Assembly: GCA_041476105.1 (NCBI GenBank)
Contig: JBGOSS010000001.1
Coordinates: 16,297-80,296 of the forward strand
Source of the DNA: Gemmatimonadota bacterium
GTDB taxonomy: Bacteria; Gemmatimonadota; Gemmatimonadetes; Gemmatimonadales; JACORV01
Length of the DNA stretch: 64,000 bases
Direction: 5' to 3'
Made by a program: the position numbers and the translations under genes. Each line of letters begins with the position of its first letter. The stretch's first letter is position 1. The notes under the pieces are model-generated. The model saw nothing but the letters and a program-made list of their open reading frames with translations. It was not told where the DNA came from and made no database searches. This document shows positions 10,404 to 34,512 of the stretch, in pieces.

Positions 10404-10413
10404 GAGGGTGAAT

Positions 10414-11574: not shown

Positions 11575-11586
11575 GGAGGAGTTTCG

Positions 11587-12135
11587 CTAGGCCGCGGTGT
11601 GGGGCGCCAGGTAGAGGCCGTCGTCGTGCATCACCAGGCGCCGTCCGGCGAGGTCGTCAAGCACGGTGCGCGCCACCTCCACCGTCCAGGCCAGGGCGTC
11701 GGCCAGCTCGCGGGCGTCGGTGCGTCCCCGCGCCGCCAGCAAGCCGAACGCGGCGCGCGCATCGTCGGCCACCTCGCCCACCAGCCTCAGCCGCCCCGCC
11801 GTCTCGGCCACCAGCGCGAGGCGCTGGGGGCGCAGCACATGGTCGATGTCGTTGATCTGGTCGTCGTCGAGGCCGCGGATCAGGAAGAACGCGTCGAGCT
11901 GGAGCTCGGAGCCGAAGGAGGCCTGCACCAGCTTGGCGACGATCTCGTCGGCGCAGGAGCAGTCGATGATGCGGACGTCGGAGAAATCGAGGACCACCAC
12001 GGTGCGGCCGGAGAGGCGGCCCAGCTCCAGCTCGATCGAAGTGCGGACGGCGCGCCCCGTGGGTCGGGTGACGAGGTCCGGGCGGCCGTGGCCGAGCTGG
12101 ACGAGCACTTCCCGGACGTCGATTTGCGTGATCAC
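11587..12135 (-). CDS. STAS-like (DUF4325-type) domain fused to a winged HTH
   Basis: LVTRPTGRAVR, VLDFSDVRIIDCSCADEIV; C-terminal DARELADALAWTVEVARTVLDDLAGRRLV; GTG overlaps upstream TGA. Confidence 0.7.
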   Translation of the reverse strand: MITQIDVREVLVQLGHGRPDLVTRPTGRAVRTSIELELGRLSGRTVVVLDFSDVRIIDCSCADEIVAKLVQASFGSELQLDAFFLIRGLDDDQINDIDHVLRPQRLALVAETAGRLRLVGEVADDARAAFGLLAARGRTDARELADALAWTVEVARTVLDDLAGRRLVMHDDGLYLAPHTAA

Positions 12136-13028
12136 TTCGCTTGCTCTGCCTCCGCTGGTATCACGAGCTGGACCTGGGCGCCGGGAAAGGGCGCCAGGTT
12201 TTCGACCAAGGGCGTGTCGTCGTCCCACGGCGGCACGATCGCGATGCGGGCGGTGCCGCTGCGGATGCTCAGCTTGCCCTGCCAGCGCCCCAGGTAGCGG
12301 CGGATCCCCGCCAGGCCCTGGCCGCGCCCCGGATCGCGGAACCGGCTCACGCTCTGGAGCAGCGCCGCCTCGAGCGCGGCCCCGTCACCCCATCGCTCGC
12401 CGAAGCGTTTGGCCTGGGTCGGCTCGAGCGTATGGCGGAACCCGACGCCGGCGTCCGCCACCGCGATCACCACGACACGCTTTCCGAGTTTGCGCCAGTT
12501 GTAGGAATGCACAGCCACCCAGCCGCCGGTTCCGGCGTGCTCCACAATATTCTGACACGCTTCGGAAAGCGCCATACCGAAACCCATTGTCGCCTTCGGG
12601 TCGAGGCCCAGTTCGCTGGTCAGGATCTCCGCGGACTTGTCCTGAATGTGATGCACGACACTATGGACGTCCTCGGCCTGCCGGACTGGCGTGACTTCGA
12701 GCAGCACCTTCGACTCGCCCGCCTTCACGCGTGGCACCGAGCCGTGCAGCTCGAAGATCTCGGCCGCGTGCGTGAAGAACCCCATGCGGGCCCAGAAGTG
12801 CGCCACGTTGCGGTCGCCCGGGACGGTGAAGAGGGCCGGGTGCCCGTCGCGTTCCCGGAGGGCCTGGCCGGCGGCGAGGAGGGTGGTGAGGCCGTAGGGC
12901 GAGATCCACTCGGTGGCGTGCGCGTCCACGATCACCTTCGCCGCGCCGGCGCTCGCCGCGTAGCCGGCGGCGACCAGGTCGAAGCTGCTCTCGTCCAGCC
13001 GCTGGGGGACTTCGATGATGGCGCTCAC
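12132..13028 (-). CDS. STAS-like domain + GHKL (HATPase_c, RsbW-like) ATPase/kinase
   Basis: N-box LSEACQNIVEHA, G1 AVADAGVGF, G2 GRGQGL, G3 FPGAQVQL; start GTG 13028 or TTG 13034. Confidence 0.8.
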   Translation of the reverse strand: MSAIIEVPQRLDESSFDLVAAGYAASAGAAKVIVDAHATEWISPYGLTTLLAAGQALRERDGHPALFTVPGDRNVAHFWARMGFFTHAAEIFELHGSVPRVKAGESKVLLEVTPVRQAEDVHSVVHHIQDKSAEILTSELGLDPKATMGFGMALSEACQNIVEHAGTGGWVAVHSYNWRKLGKRVVVIAVADAGVGFRHTLEPTQAKRFGERWGDGAALEAALLQSVSRFRDPGRGQGLAGIRRYLGRWQGKLSIRSGTARIAIVPPWDDDTPLVENLAPFPGAQVQLVIPAEAEQAK

Positions 13029-13035
13029 GCGCAAC

Positions 13036-13122
13036 CTGTCGACTGGCGGCCGTCGACTGTCAACTGTCGACTGTCGACTGTCAACTGTCGACTGTCAACT
13101 GTCGACGGTCGACAGTCGACAG
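13036..13122. repeat. About 12 tandem heptamers, consensus CTGTCRA (self-complementary GTCGAC core)
   Basis: Units counted directly; the PfkB C-terminus and stop lie inside the array. Confidence 0.92.
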
Positions 13123-14076
13123 CTGCCCGCGCAGGTGCCGCTGGAGCCCGCTGGCACCGCGATAACTCACATTCCGGCGCGCCATGTGGTTGGCCGCGGC
13201 GATGGCCGGCTCGAGCGCGATGCCGCCCAGGAGCGACGCGACCAGCGTGGCGCCGAAGACGTCGCCGCATCCGGTCGGGTCGCCCTCCACGCTCCCTCCT
13301 TCGGGCGCGATCAGGGCCGTTCTCACGATGGCCGCGCCGGCGCCGCGCTCCGGCCTCGGGCCCCCGGCCCACGACAGGTCGCTGAAGTCACCCGCCGATA
13401 CGTAGACCGCGCCGCGCGGCCCCAGCGTGACGCAGACCACGCTGGTGCCGTTGATAAGCGCGCGGGCGGCGAGGCCGAGCGGTTCCGGGCCGAGCTGGTT
13501 CATCTCGTCCTCGTTGACCTGGGCCACGTCGAAGGCGGTGAGCCAGCCGAGCGCTTCGTCGACGGGCCGGTAGTAGCGGGTGCCGTCGGCGTGGCGGCCC
13601 AGCGCCAGGGAGTGGATGTCGCCGTAAACCGGTCCGGGGAAGGCGTGCCGGAGCGCGCGCATCGTCGCCAGGTCGGTCTCGAATCCGGTGATGAAGTTGG
13701 CGTACACCGCGTCGAGTCCGAGGACCATCGGGCCCAGTTCTTCCCAGGTCCAGGGCGGCACGCCGCCGCTCAGGCCCTCGCAGCGGCGCCCGTCCTCGCC
13801 GTAGAAGAGGCGCACGCGGGGATTGGGTTCCGGCACCTCGATGAAGCGGCCGCCCGGCACGATGCACGACAGGTCCCGGAGAAACTCCGCGGCCCGGGGC
13901 GCGAAATCCCGCCCCACCTTGACGAGCGGCACCACGCGCCAGTCCGGGCTCAGCGCGGCGTCGAGCGCCGCCAGGGAGTAGCCCACGCCGCCCCACTCCT
14001 CGTCGGTCCGCTGGAGCGCGTCACGGTTTTCGATCGTGTCCCAGATCATGGTGCCCAGGACGCCCAGCTGTTTCAG
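13081..14076 (-). CDS. PfkB-family carbohydrate kinase
   Basis: LGVLGTMIWD, WGGVGY, QVNEDE, VTLGPRGA, DPTGCGDVFGA; probable CTG start overlapping the ROK stop. Confidence 0.82.
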   Translation of the reverse strand: MKQLGVLGTMIWDTIENRDALQRTDEEWGGVGYSLAALDAALSPDWRVVPLVKVGRDFAPRAAEFLRDLSCIVPGGRFIEVPEPNPRVRLFYGEDGRRCEGLSGGVPPWTWEELGPMVLGLDAVYANFITGFETDLATMRALRHAFPGPVYGDIHSLALGRHADGTRYYRPVDEALGWLTAFDVAQVNEDEMNQLGPEPLGLAARALINGTSVVCVTLGPRGAVYVSAGDFSDLSWAGGPRPERGAGAAIVRTALIAPEGGSVEGDPTGCGDVFGATLVASLLGGIALEPAIAAANHMARRNVSYRGASGLQRHLRGQLSTVDRRQLTVDS

Positions 14077-15056
14077 GCCGGCCCCCAGGTCTGCGCGCGG
14101 AAGGTGGCCGCGGCCCCCACCACGCCCGCGGTCCCGGGAAGCTCGCCGGGCAGGATGCGGCACCGCTCCACCGCCGGCTTGAAGGCCCGGCGGCTGACTT
14201 CGGCGCGTAGCGGCGTGAACAGCCGGTCGCCGGCCAGCGTGACGCCGCCGAGGATGACGACGGTGTCGGGGTTGAAGATGTTGATCAGGTTCGCGACCCC
14301 CGCGCCCAGGAACTTCGCGGTCTCGCGCACCACCTCGTTGGCGTAGTCGTCGCCGTCGTGCGCGGCTTCGTAGACCGTTTGCGCGGTGATCCGCGTGAGG
14401 TCGCCGCCGGTGTAGGTGGGCAGCTTCGACTCGGCGCCCGCCTCGATGCCCTCGACGGCGCGGGCGGCGATCGCCGGTCCCGACGCGTACGCCTCGATGC
14501 AGCCGTAGTTGCCGCACTTGCAGCGGCGCCCGGTGGAGTCGATGGTGGTGTGGCCGATCTCGCCGGCGGCGTCGCTCGCGCCATGGTAGATGCGCCCGTC
14601 GATCACGATCCCGCCGCCGATTCCCGTGCCGATGGTGAGGCCGACCAGGTAGCGCGACCCGCGGCCGGCGCCCATCCACCACTCGCCGAAGACGGCGCAG
14701 TTGGCGTCGTTGTCGAGCGTCGCCGGCAGGCCGAGGGCGTCGCTCACGCGCTGGCGCAGCGGGAAGTTGCGCCAGCCGAGGTTGGGCGTGATGAGGACCA
14801 GGCCCTTCTCCCGGTCGAGGGGACCCGGCGACCCGATGCCGACGCCGGCGATGGCGCCCTGCGCCACGGCGCCGGAAGCCTCCGCTTCGGCCATCGACTC
14901 GCGGCACAGCTGGGCGATGCGCGCGACCACGGCGTCGGCGCCCTCTTCGGGGCGGGTGGCGTCGCTGCGCACGCCGAGGACCTGCGAGGCATTCTCGGCG
15001 ACCGTCCCCACCACGATGTTGGTGCCGCCCAGGTCCACGCCCAGGATGTATCGCAT
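14073..15056 (-). CDS. ROK-family sugar kinase (glucokinase-like)
   Basis: GVDLGGT, GSPGP, DNDANCA, TIGTGIGGG, GEIGH, CKCGNYGCIEAYAS. Confidence 0.92.
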   Translation of the reverse strand: MRYILGVDLGGTNIVVGTVAENASQVLGVRSDATRPEEGADAVVARIAQLCRESMAEAEASGAVAQGAIAGVGIGSPGPLDREKGLVLITPNLGWRNFPLRQRVSDALGLPATLDNDANCAVFGEWWMGAGRGSRYLVGLTIGTGIGGGIVIDGRIYHGASDAAGEIGHTTIDSTGRRCKCGNYGCIEAYASGPAIAARAVEGIEAGAESKLPTYTGGDLTRITAQTVYEAAHDGDDYANEVVRETAKFLGAGVANLINIFNPDTVVILGGVTLAGDRLFTPLRAEVSRRAFKPAVERCRILPGELPGTAGVVGAAATFRAQTWGPA

Positions 15057-16243
15057 CAGCCCCGCCGCGCGCGCACGCGCACAATCTGGAGAATGGTCCG
15101 TACCTCGGCCAGCACACTCGCGATGGGCGTGTCCCGCATGCACTTGTGATGGATCAGCGGGCACACCACCGGCCCGTGATGCGAGCAGGGTCGGCACGCC
15201 AGCGGCTCGGGCTCCACGATGCGCGAGAGCTCGGGACGCGCGGCGAAGCCGAACTGCGGCACCGTCGGGCCGTAGATCTCCACCACCGGTGTGCCGACCG
15301 CGCTGGCCAGGTGCACCGGCGCGGAATCGTTGGACACCAGCAACTTGGCGCGGCGGATCAGCTCGCCGCTCTGGAGCAGCGTCAGGCGGGCGGTGCCGTC
15401 GGCGATGACCGCGTGGCCCAGCGTGGTGCGGATGGCGCGCGCGTCGGCCCGGTCGCCCGGGCCCCCGACGATCGCCAGGGGCGTATCGGCGGCGAGGGCG
15501 CGCGCCAGCTCGGGGTAGTACGGCCAGCGCTTCGTCGCCCAGGCGGAACCGGGCGCCAGCGCGATGAAGTCGCCGGTGATGCCGGACTCGCGCAGCAGCG
15601 CGTCCACCGCGTCGCGATCGCCCGCCGAAGGAAAAATCTCCGGCTCCCGCCGCTCCGGCGCGCCGTCGGCCAGCTTGAGGAGCCGCTCGATCTGGTGCGG
15701 CTCGCCGGCGTCCATGACGGCGTGGGTGTAGAGCCGGTGGCCAGCCGCGCCGCGGAACCCGATGCGGCGCGGACTCCCGGCGAGCCAGGCGAGCAGGGCG
15801 GAGCGCAGGCTGCCCTGGGCGAGGTAGACGGTGCCGTAGCGGCGGGCGCGCAGCTTCTTCGCCATCCTCCAGAAGCGGCCGATGCCCGCGTCGGCGCCCT
15901 GCTTGTCGAAAACGATGACCTCGCGGATGTGCGGGTTGTTGCGCAGGACGTTGGCTGCCGCGGGAATCACGACGACGTCCACCGGCGCGCCGAGACGCTC
16001 GGCGGCCCGGCGGATCAGGGGCGTGCTGAGGATCACGTCGCCGGGAAACGCGGTCTGGATGACGAGCCCGCGGTGCTGCGTCCGCGCCTGGCTGGCGCGC
16101 ACGGCGCGGGTGGCCGCCTCGATCTCGTCCTCGGGCGCGCTCACCGTGGCCACCGCGATGCTGCGCCGCGGCGGCGGCGCCGCCACGCCGCTGGGCCGCT
16201 TCGGGCTGCCGGGATCGCTCACTCGACCTTCAACAGCGTCCAT
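15056..16243 (-). CDS. GT9 LPS heptosyltransferase (WaaF-like)
   Basis: IQTAFPGDVILSTP, APGSAWATKRWP, NDSAPVHLASA, YGPT, CRPCSHHG; alternative GTG at 16222. Confidence 0.88.
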   Translation of the reverse strand: MDAVEGRVSDPGSPKRPSGVAAPPPRRSIAVATVSAPEDEIEAATRAVRASQARTQHRGLVIQTAFPGDVILSTPLIRRAAERLGAPVDVVVIPAAANVLRNNPHIREVIVFDKQGADAGIGRFWRMAKKLRARRYGTVYLAQGSLRSALLAWLAGSPRRIGFRGAAGHRLYTHAVMDAGEPHQIERLLKLADGAPERREPEIFPSAGDRDAVDALLRESGITGDFIALAPGSAWATKRWPYYPELARALAADTPLAIVGGPGDRADARAIRTTLGHAVIADGTARLTLLQSGELIRRAKLLVSNDSAPVHLASAVGTPVVEIYGPTVPQFGFAARPELSRIVEPEPLACRPCSHHGPVVCPLIHHKCMRDTPIASVLAEVRTILQIVRVRARRG

Positions 16244-16258
16244 CGCGCGGGGAATATA
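16220..16258 (-). pseudogene. Collapsed lepA remnant: -10 box + first 3 codons + last codons of lepA, fused in frame to the GT9 gene
   Basis: TATATT-N9-ATGGACGCT matches the lepA start (30403-30426); the following TGAAGGTCGAGT matches the lepA 3' end (28617-28628). Confidence 0.7.
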
Positions 16259-16281
16259 GCCGGTCCCGCGCTACCGGCCCC

Positions 16282-18768
16282 TCACGATTCCGGTTCCGGC
16301 GGACTGACGGGTGCGTCGAGCGCGGCGCGCACCGCCCGGGTGAGCGATTCGATGGTGAAGGGTTTCTGGAGCAGGGATGCCCCCAGCCCTAGCGCGGAGC
16401 GCCCTTCGAGCGATTCGCCGGTATAGCCGGACACGCACAGCACACGAATCGAGGGCCACTGCTTGCGCAGGCGCCGGGCCAGGTCGACGCCGCTCATCCC
16501 CGGCATGATCATGTCGGTCAGCAAGAGGTGGATCGGCCCGTCGCGAGTCTCCGCGATCCGCAGCGCTTCATCCCCGGACGCAGCGGCGACGACCGTGTAC
16601 CCCCGGTCCGCGAGAATCCGGCTGACCGCGCGGCGGACGGTGGCCTCATCCTCGGCGAGCAGCACGGTCTCGGTGCCGCCAAGGCCACCAACCGGTTGCG
16701 GTGCCGCCCGCTCCACCGGGCTCTGCGCCGCGACGCGCGGCAGGTACACCTTGACCGTGGTGCCGCGGCCGAGCTCGCTGTACACCCAGATGTGGCCGCC
16801 GTTCTGCTTCGCGATACTGTAGACAGTCGCCAGTCCGAGGCCCGTGCCCTTGCCCGGTTGCTTGGTGGTGAAGAAGGGTTCGAAGAGGTGCGCCTGCGTC
16901 TCGGCGTCCATGCCGGTCCCGCTGTCGCTGATCGCCAGCATGATGTGAGGCCCCGGCTCGACTGGCACCCCTCGCCCGACGTAGAGCGCATCCAGGTCCA
17001 CTTCGGACGTCTCGATCGTCAGCTGCCCCCCCTCCGGCATCGCGTCACTGGCGTTGATGACGAGGTTCGTAATGACCTGTTCCAGCTGGCCGAGATCCGC
17101 GCGGACGATGCACGGACCCTCCGCCAGCACGGTGCGCAGGGCGACGTCTTCGCGAATCACGCGCCGGAGCAGCCGGTCCATGCCGCCTACGACGATGTTC
17201 ATGTCCAGCACCTTCGGCTGGGTCACCTGCTTTCGGCCGAGCGTCAGGAGCTGCCGCGTCAGACTGGCGGCATCCAGGGCGGCGCGCCGGATCATGTCGG
17301 CGTCAGGTTGCACCGGGTGGCCCTCGCCCAGCTGCTCTGCGATGGCCTCAGCGGACGCGAGTATGACGGTGAGCAGGTTGTTGAAGTCGTGCGCGAGGCC
17401 TCCGGCAAGCTGGCCGACGACTTCCATTTTCTGCGCGCGCAGGAGCTGGCCTTCCAGGCTCTTGCGCTCGGTAATGTCGATCCATGCGCCCACGACTTCG
17501 CGTGGCGCGCCCCGTTCGTCGAGGAGGAGCCGTTGCTCGTTGAGAACCCAGCGATAGCCGCCGTCCTTCCGGCGGAGCCGGTACTCGCTCGTCAGCGAGC
17601 CCCGCGCCAGCAGCCGTTTCGTGTCGGCGATGGCCGCTTCCCGGTCGTCGGCGTGCACGCACTCGGACCACCAGGTGGGTGCGAGGGCTTCTTCCACCTG
17701 GTAGCCCAGAAGACGCGTGATGTTGTCGTTGACCCACGCGGGCCTGAGGTCCTGGCCGTCCACTTTCAGGACATAGATCACGGCCGGCGTCGCGGCGACC
17801 ACCTGCTGGAGTCGCGACTCGGCGGCCCGTAACGCTTCCTCGACGCGCTTGCGGTCGGTGATGTCCCGTGCGATGCCGTCGATTCGTGGCGCGCCGTTCC
17901 CGGCGGGAATGAGATTCTGGAGGATCCACCGTTCCTCGCGCGCCCGTGGCAGAAACCGGTACTCGATCTCCTGGGGGTTGCGGGACTGGACCGCGCGCTG
18001 GAGAGAGTCCCATGCCGCGGGGCGGTCCTCGGGGTGGACGTGGTCCCGCCAATAGTCCAGGCTGAACGCCTCCGGGGCGCACCCGAAGACGAACTGGGCT
18101 GCCTGCGAGACGTACCTGACGTCGCGTCCATCGGCGCTGACGCTGAACAGCACGTCAGGGACCGAACTGAGAATCGTCTCGATGCGCGCCTCGAGCGAGC
18201 GGGCGTACCGCGCGATCTGGGTCTGCGCCTCGGTCAGTTCCTCCTCGCGGCGCCGGAGTTGGCGATTCTGGCGGACCGCCTCCTCGAAGGTCGTCACCAG
18301 GAGATCGAGAATCTGCTCGCGCTCCGAGGAGATGCTGAACTCCCTGCCCATGAAGACAATCTGGACGCCGGTCTGCACCCGGTGACGCTTCCTGGCCCGC
18401 CGCGTCGCCAGCAGCACATCGAGTCGCTCGATGAGGTGCTCCGGGTCGTAGGGCTTGGTCACAAAATTGTCGGCCCCGCACTCGAGTCCGCGGATGATGT
18501 CCATCGGATCGGTGAGGCTCGTGAGCAGCATCACCGGAGTGTCCCGGTGCCCGCCGGCCTTGATCTGATGGCACAGCTCGTATCCGTCCACCGCGCCCGG
18601 CATCACGACATCGCTGATCACCACGTTGGGATGCTCGCGCTCGAGCCTCGCCAGGCCGTCCTCACCGTTGACGGCATGGGTGACCGCATAGCCGGCGGCC
18701 TCGAGTACACTGCGCAGCGCCTCCGCCTGGGTCGGGCTGTCCTCGACGATCAGGACGCGTGTCGTCAT
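16282..18768 (-). CDS. Hybrid histidine kinase REC-PAS-PAS-HisKA-HATPase-REC
   Basis: ISDVVMP, two PAS (VHPED/VHADD, DITERK), [34 protein letters not shown]. Confidence 0.93.
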
Positions 18769-19814
18769 GCGGTACCGCCCTTGGCCAGAGTCGTGAGCCT
18801 CGGCGCAACATCGTCCAGCGGCAGGATCTCGTCGGCTACGCCGGCCGCGGCCGCCTCACGGGGCATCCCGAACACGATCGAGGTTGCCTCATCCTGCGCC
18901 AGGACGTGTCCACCATTCGCGTTCACGGTCTTGAGCCCGTCCACCCCGTCGCGGCCCATGCCGGTGAGGATCAAGGCGACGACGGCCCGACCATGGGCGC
19001 GGGCCGCTGATTCGAACAGATAGGTGCCCGAAGGCCGGTGACCACCGAGCGGGGCCGCGTCGTCCAGTTTGGCGTGGCCGTCGAGAGTCACACCGAGGTG
19101 TCGGTCATCGGGCGCGAGGTAAACCGTGCGCGGGCTGAGTGCCTCGCCGTGCTCCGCCACTTTCACACGCAGGCCGCTGCCGGCATTCAGCCAGTCCGCC
19201 AGCGCCGCCACGAACCCCACGGCGATGTGCTGGACCACCAGGATCGGCACGTCGTAGGTTGCCGGCAGCTGTGCCAGGATGCGATGCAGCGCCGCCGGGC
19301 CTCCGGTCGACGCCGCGATGGCGACGACGCGCGGGATCACGCCGGGCGCCGGCCTGCGTGAGGTGCCGGGTGCCGGTGCGGGCCCCTGCCCCCGTTCGGG
19401 CCACCTCCGCACCACCTTCACCCCGGCCATCGCCTTCGCCATGCGCAGCAGCTCGTTGCGCCGGCCGTCGAAGCCGGGCGCGGCGGGGTTGTCCGGCTTG
19501 GGAAGCACCATGAGCGCACCGGCTCGCATCGCGTCGAAGGTGAGGCTCGTCTCAGCGCGGCTGGCACTGGAGGTGACGAGAACGATCGGCGTGGGTGCCC
19601 GCATCATGATCTCTTTCGTTGCCTCCAGGCCGTCCATCTGCGGCATGTGAATGTCCATCGCCACGAGATCCGGTTTCAGACTGCAGGTGAGCTCGACGGC
19701 TTCGGCGCCGGTGCGCGCCTGGCCCACGACCTCGGTTTCCGGATCGCTCGTGAACAACGCCACCAGCAACTCCCGGACGGTGGGCGAGTCCTCGGCGACG
19801 ACGACGCGGAGCAC
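18765..19814 (-). CDS. cheB: Chemotaxis methylesterase with REC domain
   Basis: MDIHMP; ASTGG, QHI, GMGRDG catalytic motifs. Confidence 0.93.
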   Translation of the reverse strand: MLRVVVAEDSPTVRELLVALFTSDPETEVVGQARTGAEAVELTCSLKPDLVAMDIHMPQMDGLEATKEIMMRAPTPIVLVTSSASRAETSLTFDAMRAGALMVLPKPDNPAAPGFDGRRNELLRMAKAMAGVKVVRRWPERGQGPAPAPGTSRRPAPGVIPRVVAIAASTGGPAALHRILAQLPATYDVPILVVQHIAVGFVAALADWLNAGSGLRVKVAEHGEALSPRTVYLAPDDRHLGVTLDGHAKLDDAAPLGGHRPSGTYLFESAARAHGRAVVALILTGMGRDGVDGLKTVNANGGHVLAQDEATSIVFGMPREAAAAGVADEILPLDDVAPRLTTLAKGGTA

Positions 19815-19822
19815 CGGCGCGC

Positions 19823-21997
19823 CTAGTCGAGGAGCTGCCGGATCGCGTCCAGCAGACCCTGTTGGTCGAAGCTCGACTTGCCGATGTAGGCGTCCGCACC
19901 GGCCTCCAGCCCGCGGGCGCGATGCGCCGGCGTCTCGAGTGCCGAGACGAGCACCACGGGAAGCTCCTTGAAGCGCTTGGACCCGCGGATTGCTTCACAG
20001 AGGGCGAAGCCGTCCATTCGGGGCATCTCCACATCGGCCACCACCAGGTCGCTGCCCTGCTCCTGGAGGATCTTCCAGGCATCCGCGCCATCCACCGCTG
20101 TCCGTACGTCGTAGCCGGCGGCCTCGAGAATGCTCTGCTCCAACGCGCGCGTGGTGATCGAGTCATCCACGACCACGATCCGTCGCCTGGCCGGGCCGTG
20201 CGTCTCGGTCTCGGCGGGGGCGATCCGGCCGTCGGCTGCCGATTCGAGCCCGCTGGCGATGAGGGCAGGCGTATTGAGCGCCAGTGCCACGGCGCCGCTG
20301 GCGAGCAGCACGCCTCCGCTCAGGTGGGGGAGCCGGCGGCCTCCGGACTCGAGCGGCTGGACCAGGACCTCCTGCTCGGTGATCAGCTCGTCCACGGCCA
20401 CCGCCAGGCGGCGCTCCCCGGCCGAAAGGACGACGACGGGGAACGGGTCGAGCAGCGACTTCTCAGGCAGCGGAGGGAGCAATCGCGCGAGTGGTATCAG
20501 CGGTACGGTGTCGCCAGCTGTCACGATGACGGCCCGGCCCTCGGCATGCTTGACGTCCCCCAGGCGCACGCGGATCAGGCGTTCGACGTGAGCGGTTGGC
20601 ATTGCCAGGACTTGCGGACCCACTGCGACCAGGAGGGCGTGAACGGTCGCGAGACTCAGCGGGCACTCGACGGTAAACGTCGTGCCGCGGCCGGGTGTCC
20701 ACGTCACGTCGACAGTTCCACCCATCCGGTCGATCGCGGCGCGCACCAGGTCGAGACCGACTCCGCGGCCCGAGATCGCGGTCGGCTGCGCGCGGGTCGT
20801 GAGTCCGCCCTGGAAGAGCAGGCGGGCGACCTCCCGGTCGCTCGCGGGAACGCGGGCCGCACGCCGCTCCAGCAGCGATCGGATTCCCGCGACGTTGATT
20901 CCGGCACCGTCGTCGGCGACCACGATGACCAGGCCGTCGCCGCGGAGCGTGGCCGCCACCCGTACCGTGCCCCGGCGCGGCTTGCCGGCTGCTTCCCGCG
21001 CCCCGGGGTGCTCGAGGCCGTGGTCCACCGCGTTGCGCACCAGGTGCAAGAGTGCCTCCCTGAGCATGTCGAGCACGCCGCGGTCGGCTTCCACCGCTCC
21101 GCCCTCGAGCATGAGCTGCGCCTCCTTGCCGGCGGCCGTGGCGAGGTCGCGCACCGCGCGGGGCAGGGCTTCGCAGGCGTCCGCGAACGGCCGCATCCGC
21201 AGCCGTCGTGTGCGATCGATCACTTCGTCGGTCGTCTGGGCCAGGGCGCGGGCATCTTCGGTCGCGACGCCCATCATGCGGCCGGTTTCTCGGGCGACCT
21301 GCCAGAGGCTCTGCTCCATCTCCGTCACGGACTGGGCCGCCGCGGGAGAGGCAGCCGCCCGCTCGAGGGCCAGGCGCACGCGCCGGCCGGCGCGGCTGTA
21401 TTCGACGGCCCGGCGCCGGCTGACCTCGTGCAGGGCCGCAAGCTCGTCCTTGCGGGCCGCGGCGCGCGCGGAAGCGGCGAGCAGGAGGCTCGCGGAAGCA
21501 AGCAGCGCGTCCAGCTTCTCGACCTCGACCCGCACCTGGCCGTCGGTGCGCTCCGCCGGTGCGAGGGCGGCGACGCCCGGCCCGGGGGCGGGCGGCGCCG
21601 TCTTCGGCGAGTCGGCCCCGCGCAACGAGGACAGCAGCGCCTCGAGCGGAGCGCCGAGGGGATCCTGGCCGGCCCCGAGGCGCTGGCCGGCGTCGGCCAG
21701 CGCATCGACCGCCGCGAAGAGCAGCGAGAACGCGTCCTTTCCCAGCGTCCGGTTGCCGTCGCGCGCCTCGGCAAGCACCGTTTCCAGCGCGTGGCACGCC
21801 TGCTCGATGGGCGGGACGCCGGCGGCCCGCGCGGCGCCCTTGAGGGTGTGGGCCACACGGAAAACCGACTTGAGCCGATCGGCGTCCCGCGGTGCCGCTT
21901 CGAGCGCGAGCAGGTCGGTGTTCATCACCCGCAACTGCTCCTCGAGTTCGCCGAGGAAGGTGGTGAGCAGCCGGGCGGCGAGCCGGTCCCGGTTCAT
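19823..21997 (-). CDS. cheA: CheA-like kinase with C-terminal REC (WspE/ACF type)
   Basis: HPt [24 protein letters not shown], CheW domain, [12 protein letters not shown]. Confidence 0.93.
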
Positions 21998-23421
21998 CCG
22001 TGCGCCAGCCGCGAGCCCTCGTGCCGGTTCCCGCCGACGAGCTCGAGGAGTCTGCTGCCCAGGTCGTTCAGGTCCCGGGCCGCGCGCTCGGCCTGCTTGG
22101 TCGAGGCCAGGTTCTGCTGTGTCGCCTCGTGGATGCTCGCGATCGCCTGGCGGATCTGCGCCATCCCTGCCGCCTGCTGGCCCGCTGAAGCCACGATCTG
22201 CGCAGCCGCCTGTGCTGCGCCGCCCACGACTTCGGTCACCTGCTTCGTCGCGGCCGAGACGTGCTTCGTGCCTTGCTCGGTGGTCATCACCGCCGCGGTG
22301 GTGGCCCGCTGGATCTCGCCCAGAATCCGCCGCACCTCGATCGTCGCCTTCTTCGACTGCTCGGCGAGGTTCTTCACTTCCCCCGCCACCACCGCGAACC
22401 CGCGACCCTGCTCTCCGGCGCGCGCCGCCTCCACGGCGGCATTCAGCGCCAGGAGATTGGTCTGCTCCGCGATGTCGTTCACGGTGGCGATCATCTCCCC
22501 GATCGCCTGCGCCTGCTCGGCCAGCGCCAGGATGCTCTCGGCCACCGACTCCACCTGCTCCTTGACCTCGTTCATCGCCGCGACCGACGCCTCGAGCGCC
22601 CCACGGCTCGAGCGCTCGATCTCCTTCGCTCGCTGGGCCGCCTGCTCGGCCGTCTGCGCCACCTCGTCCGCCGTCGCCACCGTCTCCGCCACGGCCGCTG
22701 AGGTCGCGCTCGCGCCGGACGCCTGCTGAGTGGTGGCGGCGAGGATCTCCGCCGCGCTCGACGCCAGCACGCCCGTGGTTTCCCGAAGCGGGGTGCTCAC
22801 GGCACGGTTCAGGAGTGTGGCCACGATGCCGCCGAGCGCCAACGCCAGGAAGCCGGCCATGAGGAGCGCACGCTGAGCCCCAATGGCCGTGGCTTGGCTC
22901 GCGCGCGTGGCGTCGTCCGTAGCCTCCTGTGCTTCCCTGATGCCGCGCTCGATCGCCAGGCGCAAACTGTCCCGGGCCGGCGCGACCCGAGCGTCGCGGA
23001 TGCGTATCGCATCGCTTTGCCTGCCAGCCCGTGCCACCGCCATTGATGCCCGCGAGGCATCATCCCAGGCCGAGAGCAGCGCGAGAGTTGCCGCCCAAAC
23101 ACTGCGGCGCTCGACCGTCCGGGTGGAGTCGCGTAGTCCTTCCAGCAGGCCCCGAGTGACGGCCAACACGCTGTCGCGACTGCGCGCGTACTGCTGCTTG
23201 TTGGGCTCGAGCAGGACCCACAAGTAGTCGATCATGGCCCGGCGCGCTTCGGCATGCGCCTCGAAGGCCGGCACCAGCGTCCGGCGCTCCTGATCGAGAG
23301 CAGTCTGGTATGCCCTTGAGGAGCTCCGAAGGGCGAGCCCCGCGACCGCCACGACCGCAACGACCAGACCCAGGGCGAGCGCGAATCCCGCCGCGATCCG
23401 GCGACTCACCGTCCAGAGCAT
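21994..23421 (-). CDS. Methyl-accepting chemoreceptor (periplasmic helical sensor)
   Basis: 2 TM helices; [30 protein letters not shown] tip. Confidence 0.92.
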
Positions 23422-23494
23422 GAGGCACGTCCCTCCCGAGAACGACGGGTATCCTCACCGCCCAGCGGCGCCTGCGCGACCGACGGCCCGGTGT

Positions 23495-24991
23495 TCACGA
23501 CCGCGACCGACCCGGCGGCGGTGCCGACTGGTGCCCATCCCCTCCGACGAGCGCGACCAACCCCGCCCCCAGGGCGCTCAGATCCTGAGCCGCACGCTCG
23601 GTCTGCTTGGTGGACGCGAGATTCTGCTGGGTGGCGTCGTGAATGGACCGCATCGCCTGACGAACCTGGGCCATGCCGGCGGCTTGCTGCCCGGCCGATG
23701 CCACGATCTGCGCCGCGGCCTGGGCGGCCTCCCCGATGGCATCCGTCAGCGCGCGGATCGTCTCGCCCGCTTCCGTCACCTGCTTCGCCGTTGCCGTCGC
23801 CTGCTTGGTGCCCTGCTCGGTGGTCATCACCGCGGCGCTGGTCGCCCGCTGGATCTCTCCCAGGATGCGCCGCACCTCGACCGTCGACTTCTTCGACTGC
23901 TCGGCGAGGCTCTTGACCTCCCCCGCGACCACCGCGAAGCCGCGCCCCTGCTCGCCGGCGCGCGCCGCCTCGACGGCGGCGTTGAGCGCCAGCAGGTTGG
24001 TCTGCTCGGCGATGTCGTTGACCGTCGCGATGATCTCCCCGATCGCCTGCGCCTGCTCCGCCAGGGAGAGGATGCTCTCGGCGATCGCCTCCACCTGCTC
24101 CTTCACGTCCGCCATCGCCGCCGTCGATGCCTCGACGGCCGCGCGGCCGGCCTTGCCGATCTCCGCGGCGCGCTGGGCTGACTGCTCCACCGCCTTCGCC
24201 CGCTGGGTCGCCTGTTCCGCCGTTTGCGACACCTCGTCCACGGTGGTGACGGTCTGCGCCACGGCCGCCGACGTCTCGCTCGCCCCCGCGGCCTGTTGGG
24301 TGCTCGCGGCCAGGATCTCCGCCGCGCTCGAAGCGAGCACCGCGGAGGTCTGCTGGAGCGGCCGGCTCACGGCACGCGTCAGCAGCACCGACGCCGTCAC
24401 CACCACGGCCAACGAGAGCGCGGTTCCCAGGAGGAGCATGAGTGCCGTGGTGCGCGCGGTCGCATCGGCATCAGCCGCGCGCTGTTGCAGCAGCCCCAGT
24501 TCATCGGCCTCCATCTGGCGCACCAGCTCGCGGATGTCGTCCATGATCCGCTTGCCCCGCCCGCTCTGCACCAGTGCGGCGGCCGCCTGAAATCCGCCGC
24601 GCCGGCGCGCGTCGACCACGCCCCGCAGCTCGTCCGCCTTGTTCCCGATGAGCGGCCGCATGGCTTCGAGACGCCGCTGCTGTGCCGCGTTGTCCGCCGT
24701 CAGCCGGCGCAGCTCCTCGAACTCGGCGTTCACCCGCTGTGCGCCGGTCGTGTAGGGTTCGAGGAAGTCATCCCGGCCGGTGATGGTGTAGCCGCGTTGC
24801 CCGGTTTCCATGTCCTTGATGGTGGACAGGACCCGCTCCAGCTGGCGCAATACCTCGTTACTGTGCGTCACCTGCTGGCTGGTGCGCAGCAGCAAGCGGT
24901 CGCTGCGGTAGGCGATCGCGCCGAGGGCCAGCACCAGCACCAGAGAGACGCTGAACCCGGCCGTGGTCTTGCCGCCAATGGACCATCTCAT
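23495..24991 (-). CDS. Methyl-accepting chemoreceptor with CHASE3 sensor
   Basis: [18 protein letters not shown] (CHASE3); MCP hairpin tip. Confidence 0.92.
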
Positions 24992-25569
24992 CGTCCACCC
25001 CCCGGGTGATGGTCGAGACCGTCAGGCTCCGGCCCTGGTGTTGGCCCCGCGATGCGCAGCAGCCGCTGCCCGTCGAGCACCAGGACCGCCTGCCCCGTCA
25101 CGCCTCGCAGGTACTCCCGCTTCACGGCGACACCGTCCGGCGGCGTGCGAATTGCACTGCCGGGGACCGTCACGAGTTCGTGTACCGCGTCCGCCAGGAT
25201 GCCGAAGGCCGGCCGGTGGCCTCCCAGCACGACGACGCGGCTCAGATCGTCGAGCGCGGCGATCGAGACCCCGAGCGCCTGCCGCAGGTCCACGATCGTC
25301 AGCAGGCCGCCCCGCCACGCGGTGACACCGAACACCGGAGCCTCGGCTCCGGGGAGCGGCGAGAGCCCGGCCAGGCGGAACACCTGGAGGACATAGCGCG
25401 CCTCGATGGCGTAGGTCTCGTTGCCCAGCGCAAAGGTGACCAACTCCAGTGTGTCGCGAGGCGCCTGTGCGGACGCCGGCCGGGCGAGTGCGCGCGCCCG
25501 TTCCGCGAGCGCGCGGCGGATCGGCTCGGTCTCGTCCGCTCGGCCGAGGGTCGAGGGCGGTGACGTCAT
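24988..25569 (-). CDS. cheW: CheW-like adaptor
   Basis: [39 protein letters not shown]. Confidence 0.85.
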
Positions 25570-27053
25570 CAGGCCGCCTCGTCGGCCAGAAGGCTCAGGC
25601 CCGCCCGAGCCATCTGGAGCAGCCGGTCCGCCCGCTCGCCGTCCGAACAGGGCACTAGCGCTTGTGGCGGCAGGGCCTCCAGCAGGTCCGCGGCGTTGCG
25701 GAAGGCGCGCCGCGCCCCTCGCCGCTCACCCGAACGCGCCAGCGCGGTGCCGAGAGAGAAGTGCGCGACGACGAGGCCGCGGTCGAGGTACAGCGCCGCC
25801 CGCGCCGCAACGATGGCCTCCGCCGTGTGGCCTCCTTCGGCCAGGAGGATCCCGTGCAGATAGGCCAGCTCCGCCGAGATCCGGTGCCGATCCAGCGCCG
25901 AAGCGCACGCTAGGCCGGCCTCGTTCAGGCGTCCGGCATTGGCGAGCGCGCGCACCAGCAGCACCCACGCCTCGGTGGTGTCGGACCGCCCAGCCGCCGC
26001 CTTAGCGAGCTCCGCGGCGCGGGCGTAGTCCTGCTCGCCGTAGCACCGTACCGCGTCGGCCAGCAGTGTCGCCTCAGTCGGTTCCGCGGTCCGGCTCGGC
26101 TCGCCGCCCGCCACGCCGATCACCGAGTCCACCTCTGCCGGCGTGTCCGGCGGCGGAGCCGGCCGCGGCTCGATCGCTGGTACCGGTCGGTGCGGTCGAT
26201 CGGGGCCGCGACGCTCGAGGAGGGACGGTGCGGCCGCGGCCGCGCGCCGGTACGCGAGCCCCGCGGGCGTGACGACCGCCTCGCAGCCGGCCAGCCCGGA
26301 AATCGACGGATCGGACGGGCCGAGCACGAGCCACCCGTCGTCCCCGAGGCTGGCGATCAGGCGGCGCGCCACGTGCGCGACCGTCTCCGCGTCGAGGTAG
26401 ATCAGCACATTGCGGCACACGATGAGGTCCATCCCCCACACGCCGGCCGCGAGCGACGGATAGGTGTCCTCGGCCAGGTTCAGGTAGCGGAACTCCACGT
26501 TGTTTCGAACGGCGGGCACCAGGTCGAAGTGGTCGCCGGTGCACCGGAAGTAGGCCGCTACGACGTCGTCAGGTACACCGCGGAGCGACCAGCGCGTATA
26601 GCTGGCACGCCGCGCCTTGGCGAGCGACCCGCGCGACAGGTCGGTCGCGAGGATGTGCGCCAGAGCGGTGAGGCCGCGCTGGTGCAGGAGGATGGCGAGG
26701 GTGTACGCCTCTTCTCCCGCGGCGCACCCGGCACTCCACAACCGGAGCGGGCGGTCGCGAGGAGTGCGAGCGCCCAGGACCGCGCTCGCGATCAGGTCGA
26801 ACTGCTCGGGCGAGCGGAAGAAGTAGCTCTCGCCGACGGTGAGATCACCCGTGAGATCGTCGAGCAGGTCCTGGTCGGAAGCGAGGCGCGCGAGGTAGTC
26901 CGCGAGGTCCCGGGTGCGGGCGCGCTCCATCGCCTTCCGCACCGCGGTCTCGAGTGCGCCGCGTCGCGACGCGGGGAACGTCAGCCCGGTCAGCCGGCGC
27001 ACGGCATCGGCCGCCGCGTCGAGCCCTGCCGGTTCGGTGAGACCGCGGCTCAC
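25569..27053 (-). CDS. cheR: CheR methyltransferase with C-terminal TPRs
   Basis: TVGESYFFR, WSAGCAAGEEAY, DLIVCRNVLIY; TPRs with RAALYLD. Confidence 0.92.
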   Translation of the reverse strand: MSRGLTEPAGLDAAADAVRRLTGLTFPASRRGALETAVRKAMERARTRDLADYLARLASDQDLLDDLTGDLTVGESYFFRSPEQFDLIASAVLGARTPRDRPLRLWSAGCAAGEEAYTLAILLHQRGLTALAHILATDLSRGSLAKARRASYTRWSLRGVPDDVVAAYFRCTGDHFDLVPAVRNNVEFRYLNLAEDTYPSLAAGVWGMDLIVCRNVLIYLDAETVAHVARRLIASLGDDGWLVLGPSDPSISGLAGCEAVVTPAGLAYRRAAAAAPSLLERRGPDRPHRPVPAIEPRPAPPPDTPAEVDSVIGVAGGEPSRTAEPTEATLLADAVRCYGEQDYARAAELAKAAAGRSDTTEAWVLLVRALANAGRLNEAGLACASALDRHRISAELAYLHGILLAEGGHTAEAIVAARAALYLDRGLVVAHFSLGTALARSGERRGARRAFRNAADLLEALPPQALVPCSDGERADRLLQMARAGLSLLADEAA

Positions 27054-27502
27054 GGCGTTTCCCCCGCCAGCGCCCCGTCGAGCCCCGCGGACTCGTCGAG
27101 CGCCAGGAACCGGTCCAGGTCGTGGATCACCAGCAGACCGTCGGGGAGCTTGGCGATGCCCGAGACGTACTCCGCCGCTGGTGTCGAAAGGGACGCCGAC
27201 TCGATGGCGTCCGCGTCGATGTGGACCACGTCCGTCGCGCGGTCGACTCGCAATCCCACCATCCGCCGTCCGGCCCGCGCGATGATGAAGTGCTGGTCGA
27301 GAGAGAGAGAAGCCGGCGGAACCCCGAAACGCCGGCGCACGTCGAGCATGGGCACGATGGTTCCCGCGACGTTGACAACGCCTTCGACGATTGCTGGGGC
27401 CTTGGGTAGGGCCGCAATCGCCACGGCACGTACGATCCGCTGCACGGCATCGGCCCGCAGCGCGAACCGTTCGTGCCCCAGCGTGAAGACCAGCACGGTC
27501 AC
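27050..27502 (-). CDS. cheW: CheW-like adaptor
   Basis: LVFTLGHERFAL, LPKAPAIVEGVVNVAGTIVPMLD. Confidence 0.88.
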   Translation of the reverse strand: MTVLVFTLGHERFALRADAVQRIVRAVAIAALPKAPAIVEGVVNVAGTIVPMLDVRRRFGVPPASLSLDQHFIIARAGRRMVGLRVDRATDVVHIDADAIESASLSTPAAEYVSGIAKLPDGLLVIHDLDRFLALDESAGLDGALAGETP

Positions 27503-27896
27503 TGGCGTCGCTGCGGCGGTTAACAGGGTCGGCGGTCGTTCATGTGGTCCTCATGAATGGCGGGCCTTGACTGGTCGTGGAGAACACTGTGGATAAACGG
27601 CGGGCGCCGCTACTGGGGATAGCCCTAGCTCTGCCCAATCGCTCCGGCAGCCGTCTCGCAAGTCGCGCAGTCGCATGGGTTTGCGGTGCATGGTGCCTGG
27701 TGGGACCAAGGCCGCTTTGGTCGTCGCCTGTCGGGAACTGGTCGACGTCACAATGTTCAACGCCAGCCTCCGTTTCATGGTCCGAAGGTGGCTCAGACGC
27801 ATTGCTCATCACTGCTACTCGATGATATGCTTTACTTGCCTGAAGCGTGTCAAGTCGATCATGAAGGCGACCAAGGCGTGGAAAACTGGGAGGGGA

Positions 27897-28586
27897 ATGG
27901 GCGCGCGCGAGCTACTCGACATCAAGCAGGCAGCCCGGTTTCTGAAAGTCAGCGAAACATCATTGCGGCGTTGGACCAATGCCGGTCGGCTGGCGTGTCT
28001 TCGCGTCGGCGGTAGGCGAGAGCGCAGGTTCAGGCGCGCCGACTTGCTGGCGATGATGGAAGAGCAGCCGGCGGTGGCTCACGCGGGCCACCTGTGCGGT
28101 CTCTACGCGGACCATCGTGGCCGGGTGAGCCAGGCCGCCGGTTTCCTCGCGGACGGCCTCCATCCCGGCAGCGTGTGCTTCCTGGTGGCGGCGCCCGAGG
28201 TCCGCGACGCCGTGGTCGAGCAACTGAAGCAGCGACGTCCTTCGCTCTCGTCGGACATCGACGCCGGACGCCTCGTGCTGTCTGAATACGCCGCATCGGC
28301 GGACGCCCAGAACGCGTACTGGGAATCCCGCTTCCTCGGGGCCGTGCGCGCCGGCGCGCACTCCCTGCGCGTGGTCGGCGACGTGTCGGGGGGGCGAATC
28401 GCGCAACGCGCTGCATTCGACGCAGTGCTCGACTACGAGGTCGGCTACGACCGGCGCTTCCGGCGCTTCCCCCTGGTCACGCTGTGCCAGTACGACGCGC
28501 GGACGCTTTCCGGCCTCGACACCGTGCGTCTCCTCAAGTGCCACGAGGATGTCTTCCGATACCCCGCTGATCGCCTGCTGACCTGA
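27897..28586 (+). CDS. DcmR-like regulator: excisionase/MerR-type HTH + MEDS domain
   Basis: LLDIKQAARFLKVSETSLRRW; HLCGLY, LRVVGD, LCQYD, KCH MEDS motifs; SD GGGAGG. Confidence 0.85.
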   Translation: MGARELLDIKQAARFLKVSETSLRRWTNAGRLACLRVGGRRERRFRRADLLAMMEEQPAVAHAGHLCGLYADHRGRVSQAAGFLADGLHPGSVCFLVAAPEVRDAVVEQLKQRRPSLSSDIDAGRLVLSEYAASADAQNAYWESRFLGAVRAGAHSLRVVGDVSGGRIAQRAAFDAVLDYEVGYDRRFRRFPLVTLCQYDARTLSGLDTVRLLKCHEDVFRYPADRLLT

Positions 28587-28614
28587 CGCGTCAGGCTGCC
28601 GGCCGGGAAGGGAG

Positions 28615-30411
28615 CTACTCGACCTTCAGCACCGCGAGGAACGCCTCCTGCGGGATCTCGACGCTGCCGACCTGCTTCATGCGCTTCTTGCCTTCCTTCT
28701 GCTTCTCCAGGAGCTTGCGCTTCCGCGTCACGTCGCCGCCGTAGCACTTGGCCAGGACGTCCTTCCGAAGCGCCGAGACGGTTTCGCGGGCGATGATCTT
28801 GGTCCCGATGGCGGCCTGGATCGCGACCGCGAACAGCTGACGCGGAATCAGCTCGCGCAGCTTGGACGCGAGCTTGCGGCCCCACTCGTACGCCTTGGCT
28901 TCGTGGATGATCACGCTGAAGGCGTCCACCGCATCACCGTTGATCAGCATGTCGAGCTTCACGAGGTCGCTCGCCCGGTACTCGATCATCTCGTAGTCGA
29001 GCGACGCGTAGCCGCGCGAGATGGTCTTCAGCTTGTCGTAGAAGTCGAGGATGATCTCGGCCAGCGGAAACTCCCAGTCCAGCTCGACGCGCGTGGTATC
29101 CAGATACTTCATGCCGAGGTAGACGCCGCGCCGCTCCTGGCAGAGCTTCATGAGGCCGCCGATATAGTCGGCGGGGCTGAGGATGCGGGCCTTCACGAAC
29201 GGCTCTTCGATGCGGTCCACCGCGGAGCCGGTCGGCATCTTCGAGGGGTTCTCGACGATCACCTTGGTGCCGTCGGTGAGGTACACGTCGTACTCGACGT
29301 TGGGCACCGTGGTCACGAGGTTGATGTCGAACTCGCGCGTCAGCCGCTCCTGGACGATCTCCATGTGGAGCAGGCCCAGGAAGCCGGTGCGGAAGCCGAA
29401 GCCCAGCGCGACCGACGTCTCGGGCTCGTAGTGCAGTGATGCGTCGTTGAGCTTCAGCTTGGCGAGGGCGTCGCGCAGGCCCTCGTACTGCTCGGTCTGG
29501 GTCGGGTAGAGGCCCGCGAAGACCATCGACTTGGCGTCGCGGTAGCCGGGCAGGCTCTCGGGCGCCCGGTTGTCGGCGTCGAGGATGGTGTCACCCGAAC
29601 GGGTGTCGGCGACGTCGCGGAAGTTGGCGATGAGGTAGCCCACCTCGCCCGCGGTCAGCCGCTCGCCCGGCTGATGGCCGAGCTGGAGGGTGCCGACTTC
29701 GGCGACCTCGTAGGTCCCCTCGTGCGACCCCATCGCGATCTTCATGCCGGGACGCACTTCGCCGTCCACCACCCTGATGGACGGGATCGCGCCGCGGTAG
29801 CGGTCGTAGTAGCTGTCGAAGATCAGCGCGCGCAGCGGCGCGGCGGGGTTCCCGCGGGGCGCCGGGACCCGCGCGATGATGGCTTCCAGCAGCTCCGGGA
29901 TGCCGCGGCCCTCCTTGGCCGACACCAGCAGGATGTCGTCGGGGTCGGCGCCGACGAGGTCGTGGATCTCGGCTTTGCGCTTCTCGGGCTCGGCGCTGGG
30001 CAGGTCGATCTTGTTGAGGACGGGGATGATCTCGAGCCCGGCGTCGAGCGCGAGGAAGAGATTCGAGAGTGTCTGCGCCTGGATCCCCTGCGAGGCGTCC
30101 ACCACCAGGATCGCGCCCTCGCACGCCGCGAGCGAGCGGCTGACCTCGTAGGTGAAGTCCACGTGGCCCGGCGTATCGATCAGGTTCAGCTCGTATTCCT
30201 GCCCGTCGGCGGCCTCGTACTTCATGCGCACGGCGTTGAGCTTGATGGTGATGCCGCGCTCCCGCTCCAGGTCCATGGTGTCGAGGACCTGCTCGCGCAT
30301 CTCCCGGCGGGTGAGCGTCCCCGTCGCCTCGATGAGGCGGTCGGCGAGGGTGCTCTTCCCGTGGTCGATGTGGGCCACGATGCAGAAGTTGCGGATGCGG
30401 GAAGCGTCCAT
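28615..30411 (-). CDS. lepA: Elongation factor 4
   Basis: [60 protein letters not shown]. Confidence 0.98.
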
Positions 30412-30420
30412 GCGGCGGGA

Positions 30421-30428
30421 AATATACA
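30421..30428 (-). promoter_or_regulatory. -10 box TATATT of a near-leaderless lepA promoter
   Basis: TATATT 9 nt upstream of ATG, no SD. Confidence 0.6.

Positions 30429-31605: not shown

Positions 31606-34512
<2,907 letters not shown>

Follow-up and report, generated by a model that had tools for sequence, protein, structure and literature searches.

A two-ended lepA remnant as the predicted start of a glycosyltransferase gene behind a chemosensory insertion in a Gemmatimonadota genome

Nobusato et al. are said to have described, in 2000, a mode of insertion with long target duplication. In the portions of a later account drawn on here, such an event leaves genes, with no mobility gene among them, between two direct repeats that match one and the same single copy in genomes without the insert; the repeats frequently extend over the 3′ end of a neighbouring gene (Furuta, Abe and Kobayashi 2010, PMC2853133), and those given there are contiguous, 46–423 bp long and placed around restriction-modification genes. 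Here we consider an arrangement found in a 64,000-nucleotide (nt) stretch of DNA from a Gemmatimonadota bacterium (the window; contig JBGOSS010000001.1), in which a block of chemosensory (che) genes separates full-length lepA from a gene of glycosyltransferase family 9 (GT9, the heptosyltransferase family), and in which a short remnant made of both ends of lepA, a “mini-lepA”, lies directly upstream of GT9. The genome that carries the window, designated G000, comprises 4.03 Mb at 70% G+C in 115 contigs and is 84% complete.

A second precedent is the single crossover of Campbell type with a gene-bearing circle, in the style of an F-prime or a suicide plasmid, which yields the gene, the insert and then the gene again. 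The left copy then retains its native upstream neighbourhood and the right copy its native downstream one; the long repeats are unstable, and the insert is stabilised when one copy is deleted. A third is the element SXT, whose insertion, as Hochhut and Waldor reportedly found in 1999, gives prfC a new promoter and a new N-terminus.

As in long target duplication, mobility genes are missing from the block, and relatives lack the insert, their single target aligning with both repeats (22 of 25 informative genomes of the family). Unlike the repeats in the consulted portions of PMC2853133, however, the putative duplicate here would have been a whole 1.8-kb gene together with its promoter, since cut to two fused end-pieces, and the cargo is a chemosensory operon (in a second genome, G011, a set of secreted-protein and sigma/anti-sigma genes) rather than restriction-modification genes. 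The criterion stated in those same portions, a contiguous target of >30 bp on both sides (PMC2853133), compares with discontiguous pieces of 24 and 15–17 nt in G000 and of ~47 and ~71 nt in G011. In the manner of a Campbell-type outcome, the left lepA keeps its native upstream context and the right remnant lies in native downstream context; unlike such an outcome, no circle, plasmid genes or second long copy are seen, no foreign lepA segment appears in the trees, and the process is reconstructed from the scar alone. As with SXT and prfC, a housekeeping gene that the insertion would separate from its expression signals acquires a promoter and first codons at the border of the element, here as predicted from sequence; SXT, however, encodes a tyrosine integrase and supplies sequence of its own, whereas here there is no integrase and the signals are a copy of those of the upstream neighbour. 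Because no recombinase is present, we do not regard the block as an integrase-made island. The scar belongs to a known kind, that of integrase-less insertions flanked by duplicated target sequence; what is new is a collapsed, two-ended remnant of a protein gene that is reused as the start of the next gene and that recurs at one junction. Literature searches on lepA as an island site, on lepA together with leaderless expression, and on integrase-less islands that restore a promoter returned nothing relevant, which is not proof of absence.

The lepA remnant and the ancestral junction

lepA occupies 28615–30411 on the minus strand and encodes 598 amino acids with the domains GTP_EFTU and LepA_C (Pfam, which was used for the families of open reading frames, ORFs, in the window and at the other loci). 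Its start region consists of the −10-like hexamer TATATT (30421–30426), a 9-nt spacer and ATGGACGCT, together a predicted promoter of leaderless type, and its 3′ end is the 12-mer TGAAGGTCGAGT (28617–28628; the last codons and the first stop base), followed by AG, which completes a TAG stop in place of the ancestral overlapping TGA. Upstream of GT9 on the same strand lies the 40-nt remnant (16219–16258), in which the hexamer, spacer and first three codons of lepA are joined to its last codons. The 5′ module (16235–16258) begins with TATATT at 16253–16258, 23 bases past the stop of the kinase gene that ends the block, and continues with a 9-nt spacer and ATGGACGCT (ATG GAC GCT) at 16235–16243; it is identical to the lepA promoter-start region at 20 of 24 positions. 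A single G then separates it from the 3′ module TTGAAGGTCGAGTGA (16219–16233), which carries the last lepA codons (LKVE) with the ancestral TGA and contains the right copy of the 12-nt repeat (16221–16232). This TGA overlaps the GTG at 16220–16222, the ancestral start of GT9, and the ATG at 16243 is in frame with GTG and gene, with MDAVEGR encoded ahead of the old start. The initial annotation of the window had proposed such a scar from the letters alone; every string that it quoted is present on the minus strand when lepA and the region upstream of GT9 are read directly, and translation bears out both the in-frame extension and the overlap of TGA with GTG.

Across both strands of the G000 genome, two sites match the 24-nt promoter-start string of lepA at ≤4 mismatches, namely lepA and the remnant, and the 12-mer had two exact copies, one at the end of lepA and one in the remnant. 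Likewise, at 63 sites TATATT or TATCTT lies 5–11 nt ahead of a start that opens at least 100 codons, and GACGC follows the start only in lepA and the remnant. Two unique matches to both ends of one gene, one base apart and at the former end of that gene, are not a coincidence, and at the level of sequence comparison they show the remnant to be homologous to lepA. The 3′ end of the target gene is thus directly repeated, in a 12-nt, exact and genome-unique form, while the target gene itself is full length. The similarity of the left and right junctions ends at the lepA stop codon; a duplication extending into GT9 was considered and rejected, since the sequences after the two stops are not significantly similar (their score was reached in 145 of 1000 shuffles). 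Other promoter-start duplicates were sought at 116 leaderless-type sites, with two weak, chance-like 24-nt matches as the outcome, at a mismatch limit that missed even the pair formed by lepA and the remnant.

It is informative to compare this arrangement with the same junction in other genomes. GT9 orthologues were sought in 40 relatives and the upstream regions were then inspected. lepA stands directly before GT9 in 22 of the 25 informative genomes of the family, and none of these 22 has a che cluster at the junction; three are interrupted (G000, G006 and G011), and two further genomes were uninformative (the GT9 orthologue was not found in G016, and in G078 the gene lies at a contig start). 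Adjacency was found in 16 of 19 fetched loci, and in all 16 lepA closes with codons for LKVE, which vary synonymously, and with a TGA sharing its TG with the end of the GTG or ATG of GT9, giving GTGA or ATGA. The overlap of stop and start was read in these 16 junctions only, the adjacency of the other six coming from coordinates (G004, G013, G015 and G022) or from a further small search (G024 and G073). In the last two, lepA is fragmented by apparent frameshifts. Their loci (L126 in G024, L123 in G073) show lepA and GT9 in several frames and come from low-completeness, few-contig genomes; the broken frames are probably sequencing-indel errors, not real pseudogenes.

The same order is found more widely. 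A scan of metagenomes gave 80 loci, and in 73 of the 76 with usable upstream sequence the last codon of lepA lies at most 200 nt from the GT9 core; the adjacency also reaches the order's other two families (for example G026, G027, G029 and G040). Two loci, L095 and L118, just have longer lepA–GT9 intergenic spacers. As judged from gene order in the sequences compared, this distribution shows the adjacency to be ancestral. The GT9 start overlaps the lepA TGA, and the two genes would therefore be translationally coupled, in agreement with the suggestion in the initial annotation that they once were. That annotation had also named what would speak against it, relatives in which the two genes are never adjacent and in which MDAVEGR is conserved. 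Adjacency is widespread, and in the 16 junctions read GT9 orthologues start at the overlapping GTG or ATG, MDAVEGR not being conserved. In 12 of 12 genomes with adjacency, lepA ends in TGA, as against TAG in G000 and TAA in both G006 and G011, a change that is expected because overlap with the GT9 start no longer constrains the stop.

The short distance between hexamer and start in lepA is the layout of leaderless or near-leaderless genes in other high-GC bacteria. A TAT[AC]T[TA] hexamer lies 8–10 nt ahead of the lepA ATG (as ATGGA) in 15 of 15 relatives, and the same layout is found in 9 of 9 full-length metagenome lepA genes, hence in 24 of 24 other sequences of the family. In G000 the −10 element lies a few bases upstream of the start, as in a leaderless unit, both in lepA and in the remnant (TATATT, 9 nt before ATG). 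TATATT occurs at 42 sites in this genome, at 11 of which an ATG or GTG 7–10 nt downstream opens an ORF of at least 100 codons; for TATCTT, a start 5–9 nt downstream does so at 47 of 154 sites. Both hexamers are strongly enriched 5–10 nt before starts in G000, and leaderless-type genes seem common in this organism. The hexamer of the remnant would on this basis act as a promoter, and GT9 can be predicted to gain seven residues by translation from a leaderless or near-leaderless transcript in G000, where the old GTG is likewise preserved.

Recurrence at the lepA–GT9 junction

Among the genomes of the family, a che block at this junction occurs only in G000 and in G006, a member of the same genus whose lepA is 92% and whose GT9 is 84% identical to that of G000. 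A single contig of G006 carries lepA, CheW, CheR, CheW, one methyl-accepting chemotaxis protein (MCP), CheA, CheB, a kinase 76% identical to that of G000, and GT9. A tblastn search of this locus (L021) with the G000 gene set did not find, between lepA and CheW, the MEDS gene that G000 has there, and no recombinase was found in the G006 block. Ahead of GT9 lie TATATT, a 9-nt spacer and ATGGACGCC, which is in frame with the conserved GT9 core and continues into it; between the lepA-derived ATG and that core there is neither a further ATG, GTG or TTG nor an LKVE remnant. The lepA-derived ATG, being the first in-frame start before the core, is the only plausible start of GT9 in G006, and this supports the reading of the G000 remnant as a start for GT9. 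The 24-nt lepA promoter-start is identical in the two genomes; their remnants differ at four positions, both keeping the hexamer and the ATG.

The che proteins of G000 and G006 are only 51–65% identical, no closer than to those of clusters at other loci in G014, G015, G017 and G004, and the CheA of G000 is 63–65% identical to that of G014 as against 54–56% to that of G006. Separate acquisition of the blocks by G000 and G006, suspected from these CheA identities, was rejected by the trees of CheB and CheR, which pair G000 with G006 (support 100/98 and 97/94) and place G006 on long branches; the CheA tree is without resolution. We read this pattern as pointing to one insertion in the common ancestor of G000 and G006, followed by fast divergence. 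Because a che cluster is present at other loci in five other genomes of the family (in the same order in G014, G017 and G015, and recovered in part in G004 and G016), the source of the block probably lies within the family. A separate observation concerns contig C47 of G000, where a gene that in G014 stands beside the che cluster has its orthologue split into two matching pieces (~979–1269 and 7433–8830) with about 6 kb between them, which may represent another insertion inside a gene.

The third interrupted genome, G011, belongs to another genus, and its sister in the lepA trees, G007, has plain adjacency. In G011 (loci L008, 1446–1580, and L022, 9672–19700), lepA is followed by ~9.7 kb of cargo on the opposite strand, whose ORFs are unrelated to the che block (M6-peptidase-like, Kelch/Ig, CHAT, TPR, zf-HC2 anti-sigma and ECF sigma) and include no recombinase among the 13 scanned. 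Past the cargo come TATATT, an 11-nt spacer and a 38-codon ORF composed of the two ends of lepA, the TGA of which overlaps the ATG of GT9 (ATGA). The best lepA alignment of the 5′ part of this ORF covers nt −16 to +30, with a score of 15 against a shuffle maximum of 14, and that of the 3′ part covers nt 1727–1800, with a score of 29 against a maximum of 19 (0 of 500 shuffles in each case). Its fourth and fifth codons encode Arg-His, as in the lepA of G011 and G007 and unlike that of the genus of G000. Both ends stay in the lepA frame and give a short coupling ORF, not an in-frame extension of GT9. On the sequence evidence, G011 shows a second event of the same kind in another genus, with other cargo, other breakpoints and a locally derived lepA, and its two-ended remnant lends independent support to the proposed collapse of a whole lepA copy.

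It is also worth considering insertions at this junction that lack such a signature. On the metagenome contig of locus L047 (1561–2410), a mazE/mazF pair (Pfam) lies in a lepA–GT9 gap of ~0.85 kb, and ahead of GT9, which has an unusual acidic N-terminus, TATATT is followed, after an 8-nt spacer whose first base is T, by an ATG in frame with the gene. This locus fits the pattern and proves nothing; a lepA scar cannot be demonstrated at every insertion into this junction. The lepA–GT9 gap measures 2.2 kb (G028, L036) and 4.4 kb (G030, L037) in two genomes of another family of the order; the one in G028 holds a co-directional S9-peptidase gene, and neither gap contains a TATATT or TATCTT hexamer, a lepA-end motif or a lepA remnant.

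Possible origins of the remnant

We consider it likely that the whole of lepA was duplicated around the che block and that the right copy then collapsed to a promoter-and-start adaptor for GT9. In this family, lepA and GT9 form one unit, with a predicted leaderless-type lepA promoter and a GT9 start that overlaps the lepA TGA. In the lineage of G000 and G006, the event that brought the che block in between the two genes would have left a copy of lepA on either side of it. The left copy would have been kept whole in its native upstream context, its stop, freed from the overlap, later changing from TGA to TAG or TAA, and an internal deletion would have cut the right copy to the 40-nt module of −10 hexamer, spacer, ATG and two further codons, followed by the final four to five lepA codons and the old TGA. 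The junction so formed in G000 would set the lepA ATG in frame with GT9, and the remnant would serve as the adaptor for GT9 and the genes behind it; what remains would be the elements still of use to GT9, namely the start codon with its −10 box and, in genomes that retain it, the overlap of stop and start. An insert between long direct repeats would be prone to excision, and loss of one copy would make it stable. We infer the former presence of a whole lepA copy at the right border, and the route by which it was duplicated is a further step of conjecture. The lepA-bearing circle invoked in the initial annotation would be one of several candidates, which include crossover with such a circle, long target duplication, and tandem duplication followed by insertion.

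Several observations weigh against this explanation. The repeats present in G000 today are only 24 and 15–17 nt long and come from opposite ends of lepA, the full copy being a reconstruction. Two long lepA copies were seen in none of the 401 genomes of the order that were counted (E ≤ 1e-150; five unpublished genomes, G202, G077, G357, G089 and G257, included), 390 of which had exactly one match. Trees of the two halves of lepA (nt 1–900 and 901–1797) place G000, G006 and G001 in one clade in both cases (100/99), with no foreign donor visible, and sliding-window identity gave no crossover point; the trees also allow G001, which is free of the island, to branch either within or outside G000 and G006, and G001 may have lost the block. 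G+C at third codon positions (GC3) in the block is 0.80–0.90, within the range of a genome whose median is 0.874, and composition therefore shows no sign of import. As to expression, a sigma-70 scan requiring a −35 box found no promoter in 15900–16600, and no terminator-like site was found in the same interval, which spans the gap between kinase and remnant; GT9 could therefore receive read-through transcription from the che operon as well. Finally, L047 has no recognisable lepA codons ahead of GT9, on a contig without a lepA 5′ end of its own for comparison.

The lepA comparisons merit a separate remark. Nucleotides 451–900 of the G000 gene are 75–79% identical to G006 and 85–89% to G001, whereas nt 1051–1650 are slightly closer to G006, which hints at recombination among related lineages. 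A foreign donor, or a crossover inside lepA, was examined as a candidate and set aside, as window identity and half-gene trees gave only a weak mosaic and no usable breakpoint.

Dispensing with whole-gene duplication, one could suppose that the block was inserted at the lepA stop with a target duplication of 12–17 nt and that a promoter-start patch was later copied before GT9, by template switching or gene conversion during repair, and was kept since it restored expression. That G000 has only short repeats today, that no genome with two long lepA copies is found among the 401, and that the similarity of the two junctions ends at the lepA stop (the shuffle result given above) all agree with such a history. 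It needs, however, two rare and separate events that land side by side, and it must have happened twice, as G011 has the same two-end architecture with other breakpoints and ~71 nt from the 3′ part of lepA. A duplicated gene with a single internal deletion accounts for G000 and G011 more simply and is favoured, and we judge the copied patch to be quite unlikely.

A direct repeat of the 3′ end of a target, with the target gene restored, is also the classic signature of site-specific integration, and the block might be the remnant of an integrative element at the lepA 3′ end, with the 12-nt repeat as its att core and TATATT–ATG as an outward promoter of the element that resembles that of lepA by convergence. 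Leaderless-type promoters are common in G000, and L047 has one without lepA codons, in agreement with this. Yet no recombinase is found in the 12.4 kb of G000, in the G006 block or in the 13 scanned ORFs of G011, the cargoes are unrelated, and five other genomes of the family have the che cluster elsewhere. Moreover, the 5′ module shares GACGCT with lepA, which is true of only 2 of the 63 comparable sites, and in G011 the similarity to the 5′ coding region of lepA is ~30 nt long; an integrative element of this kind seems to us very improbable. An artefact, whether chance resemblance in GC-rich sequence or a chimeric metagenome assembly, can hardly be credited, even for an assembly of 115 contigs and 84% completeness, given that both halves of the remnant are unique genome-wide, that the order of lepA, che block, remnant and GT9 is repeated in the separate genome G006, and that the 2-kb stretch from kinase through remnant to GT9 (15300–17300) was found, at half or more of the sampled words, in 5 sediment DNA runs, the best of which may be the source sample; no RNA run was listed for this stretch.

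Genes of the window and significance

The inserted block between the lepA stop and the remnant spans 16259–28614 (12,356 nt), and all ten of its ORFs were assigned by Pfam to chemosensory or regulatory families. Next to lepA and convergent with it is an HTH/MEDS-domain regulator on the plus strand (27675–28586). The chemosensory group (18765–27502, minus strand) then runs from CheW (27050–27502) through CheR (25569–27053), a second CheW (24988–25569), a CHASE3-MCP (23495–24991), an MCP with a four-helix bundle (4HB; 21994–23421) and a CheA with a receiver domain (CheA-REC; 19823–21997) to CheB (18765–19814), and the last gene of the block, also on the minus strand, encodes the hybrid histidine kinase, of architecture REC-PAS-PAS-HisKA-HATPase-REC (16282–18768). 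No recombinase or integrase is among the ten ORFs, and no unassigned space is big enough for an integrase, in line with the initial annotation, which had seen none. A hybrid kinase of like architecture also lies on the other side of the region, upstream of lepA (31606–34512), with an extra GAF domain; this gene is part of the conserved context, since G006 has a homologue's C-terminal fragment upstream of its lepA.

Read from the lepA-derived ATG, GT9 extends over 15056–16243 on the minus strand (Pfam Glyco_transf_9). Behind it on the same strand, Pfam assignments confirm the co-directional run to ftsEX that had been noted earlier (7587–15117), in the order 678-amino-acid ORF with a PfkB-like C-terminus, HATPase-like ORF, 213-amino-acid ORF, a Cys/Met pyridoxal phosphate enzyme, FtsE, FtsX and an M23 peptidase. 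The 678-amino-acid ORF (13081–15117, minus strand) lies behind GT9 in relatives too. Its GC3 is only 0.73 as against 0.86–0.96 in its neighbours, and it has a family match (PfkB) at the C-terminus only; it may represent two genes, or its start or frame may have been called wrongly.

One can imagine a further role for this junction, as a recurrent, recombinase-free landing site at which the collapsed copy is an expression adaptor and cargo and mini-lepA together are mobile as a RecA-dependent circle, a proposal that we regard as rather doubtful. If it were true, the adaptor would supply promoter, start codon and stop/start overlap, unrelated cargo, even on the opposite strand as in G011, would be tolerated inside a coupled pair, and the downstream cell-envelope and division genes would not be silenced by it. 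The circle would leave by way of the repeats of the lepA ends and re-enter the lepA of another genome by homology alone, which would make it a minimal mobile unit.

Whatever the route, the locus offers a clean, dated example of an operon split by a large insertion without loss of the predicted expression of its distal genes, and of a duplicated upstream gene apparently reduced to the signals that still matter, namely −10 box, start codon and stop/start overlap. Two lineages with unrelated cargo would have reached the same solution, by an in-frame start fusion in G000 and G006 and by a 38-codon coupling ORF in G011, and the comparison amounts to a natural experiment on leaderless initiation versus translational coupling. 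Annotators may assign GT9 a wrong start or overlook the remnant, and comparison with the two ends of a neighbouring gene reveals scars of this type. For these bacteria, the remnants of integrase-less insertions may thus be more than traces of past events, in that they can, as these sequences suggest, be functional parts of a present gene.

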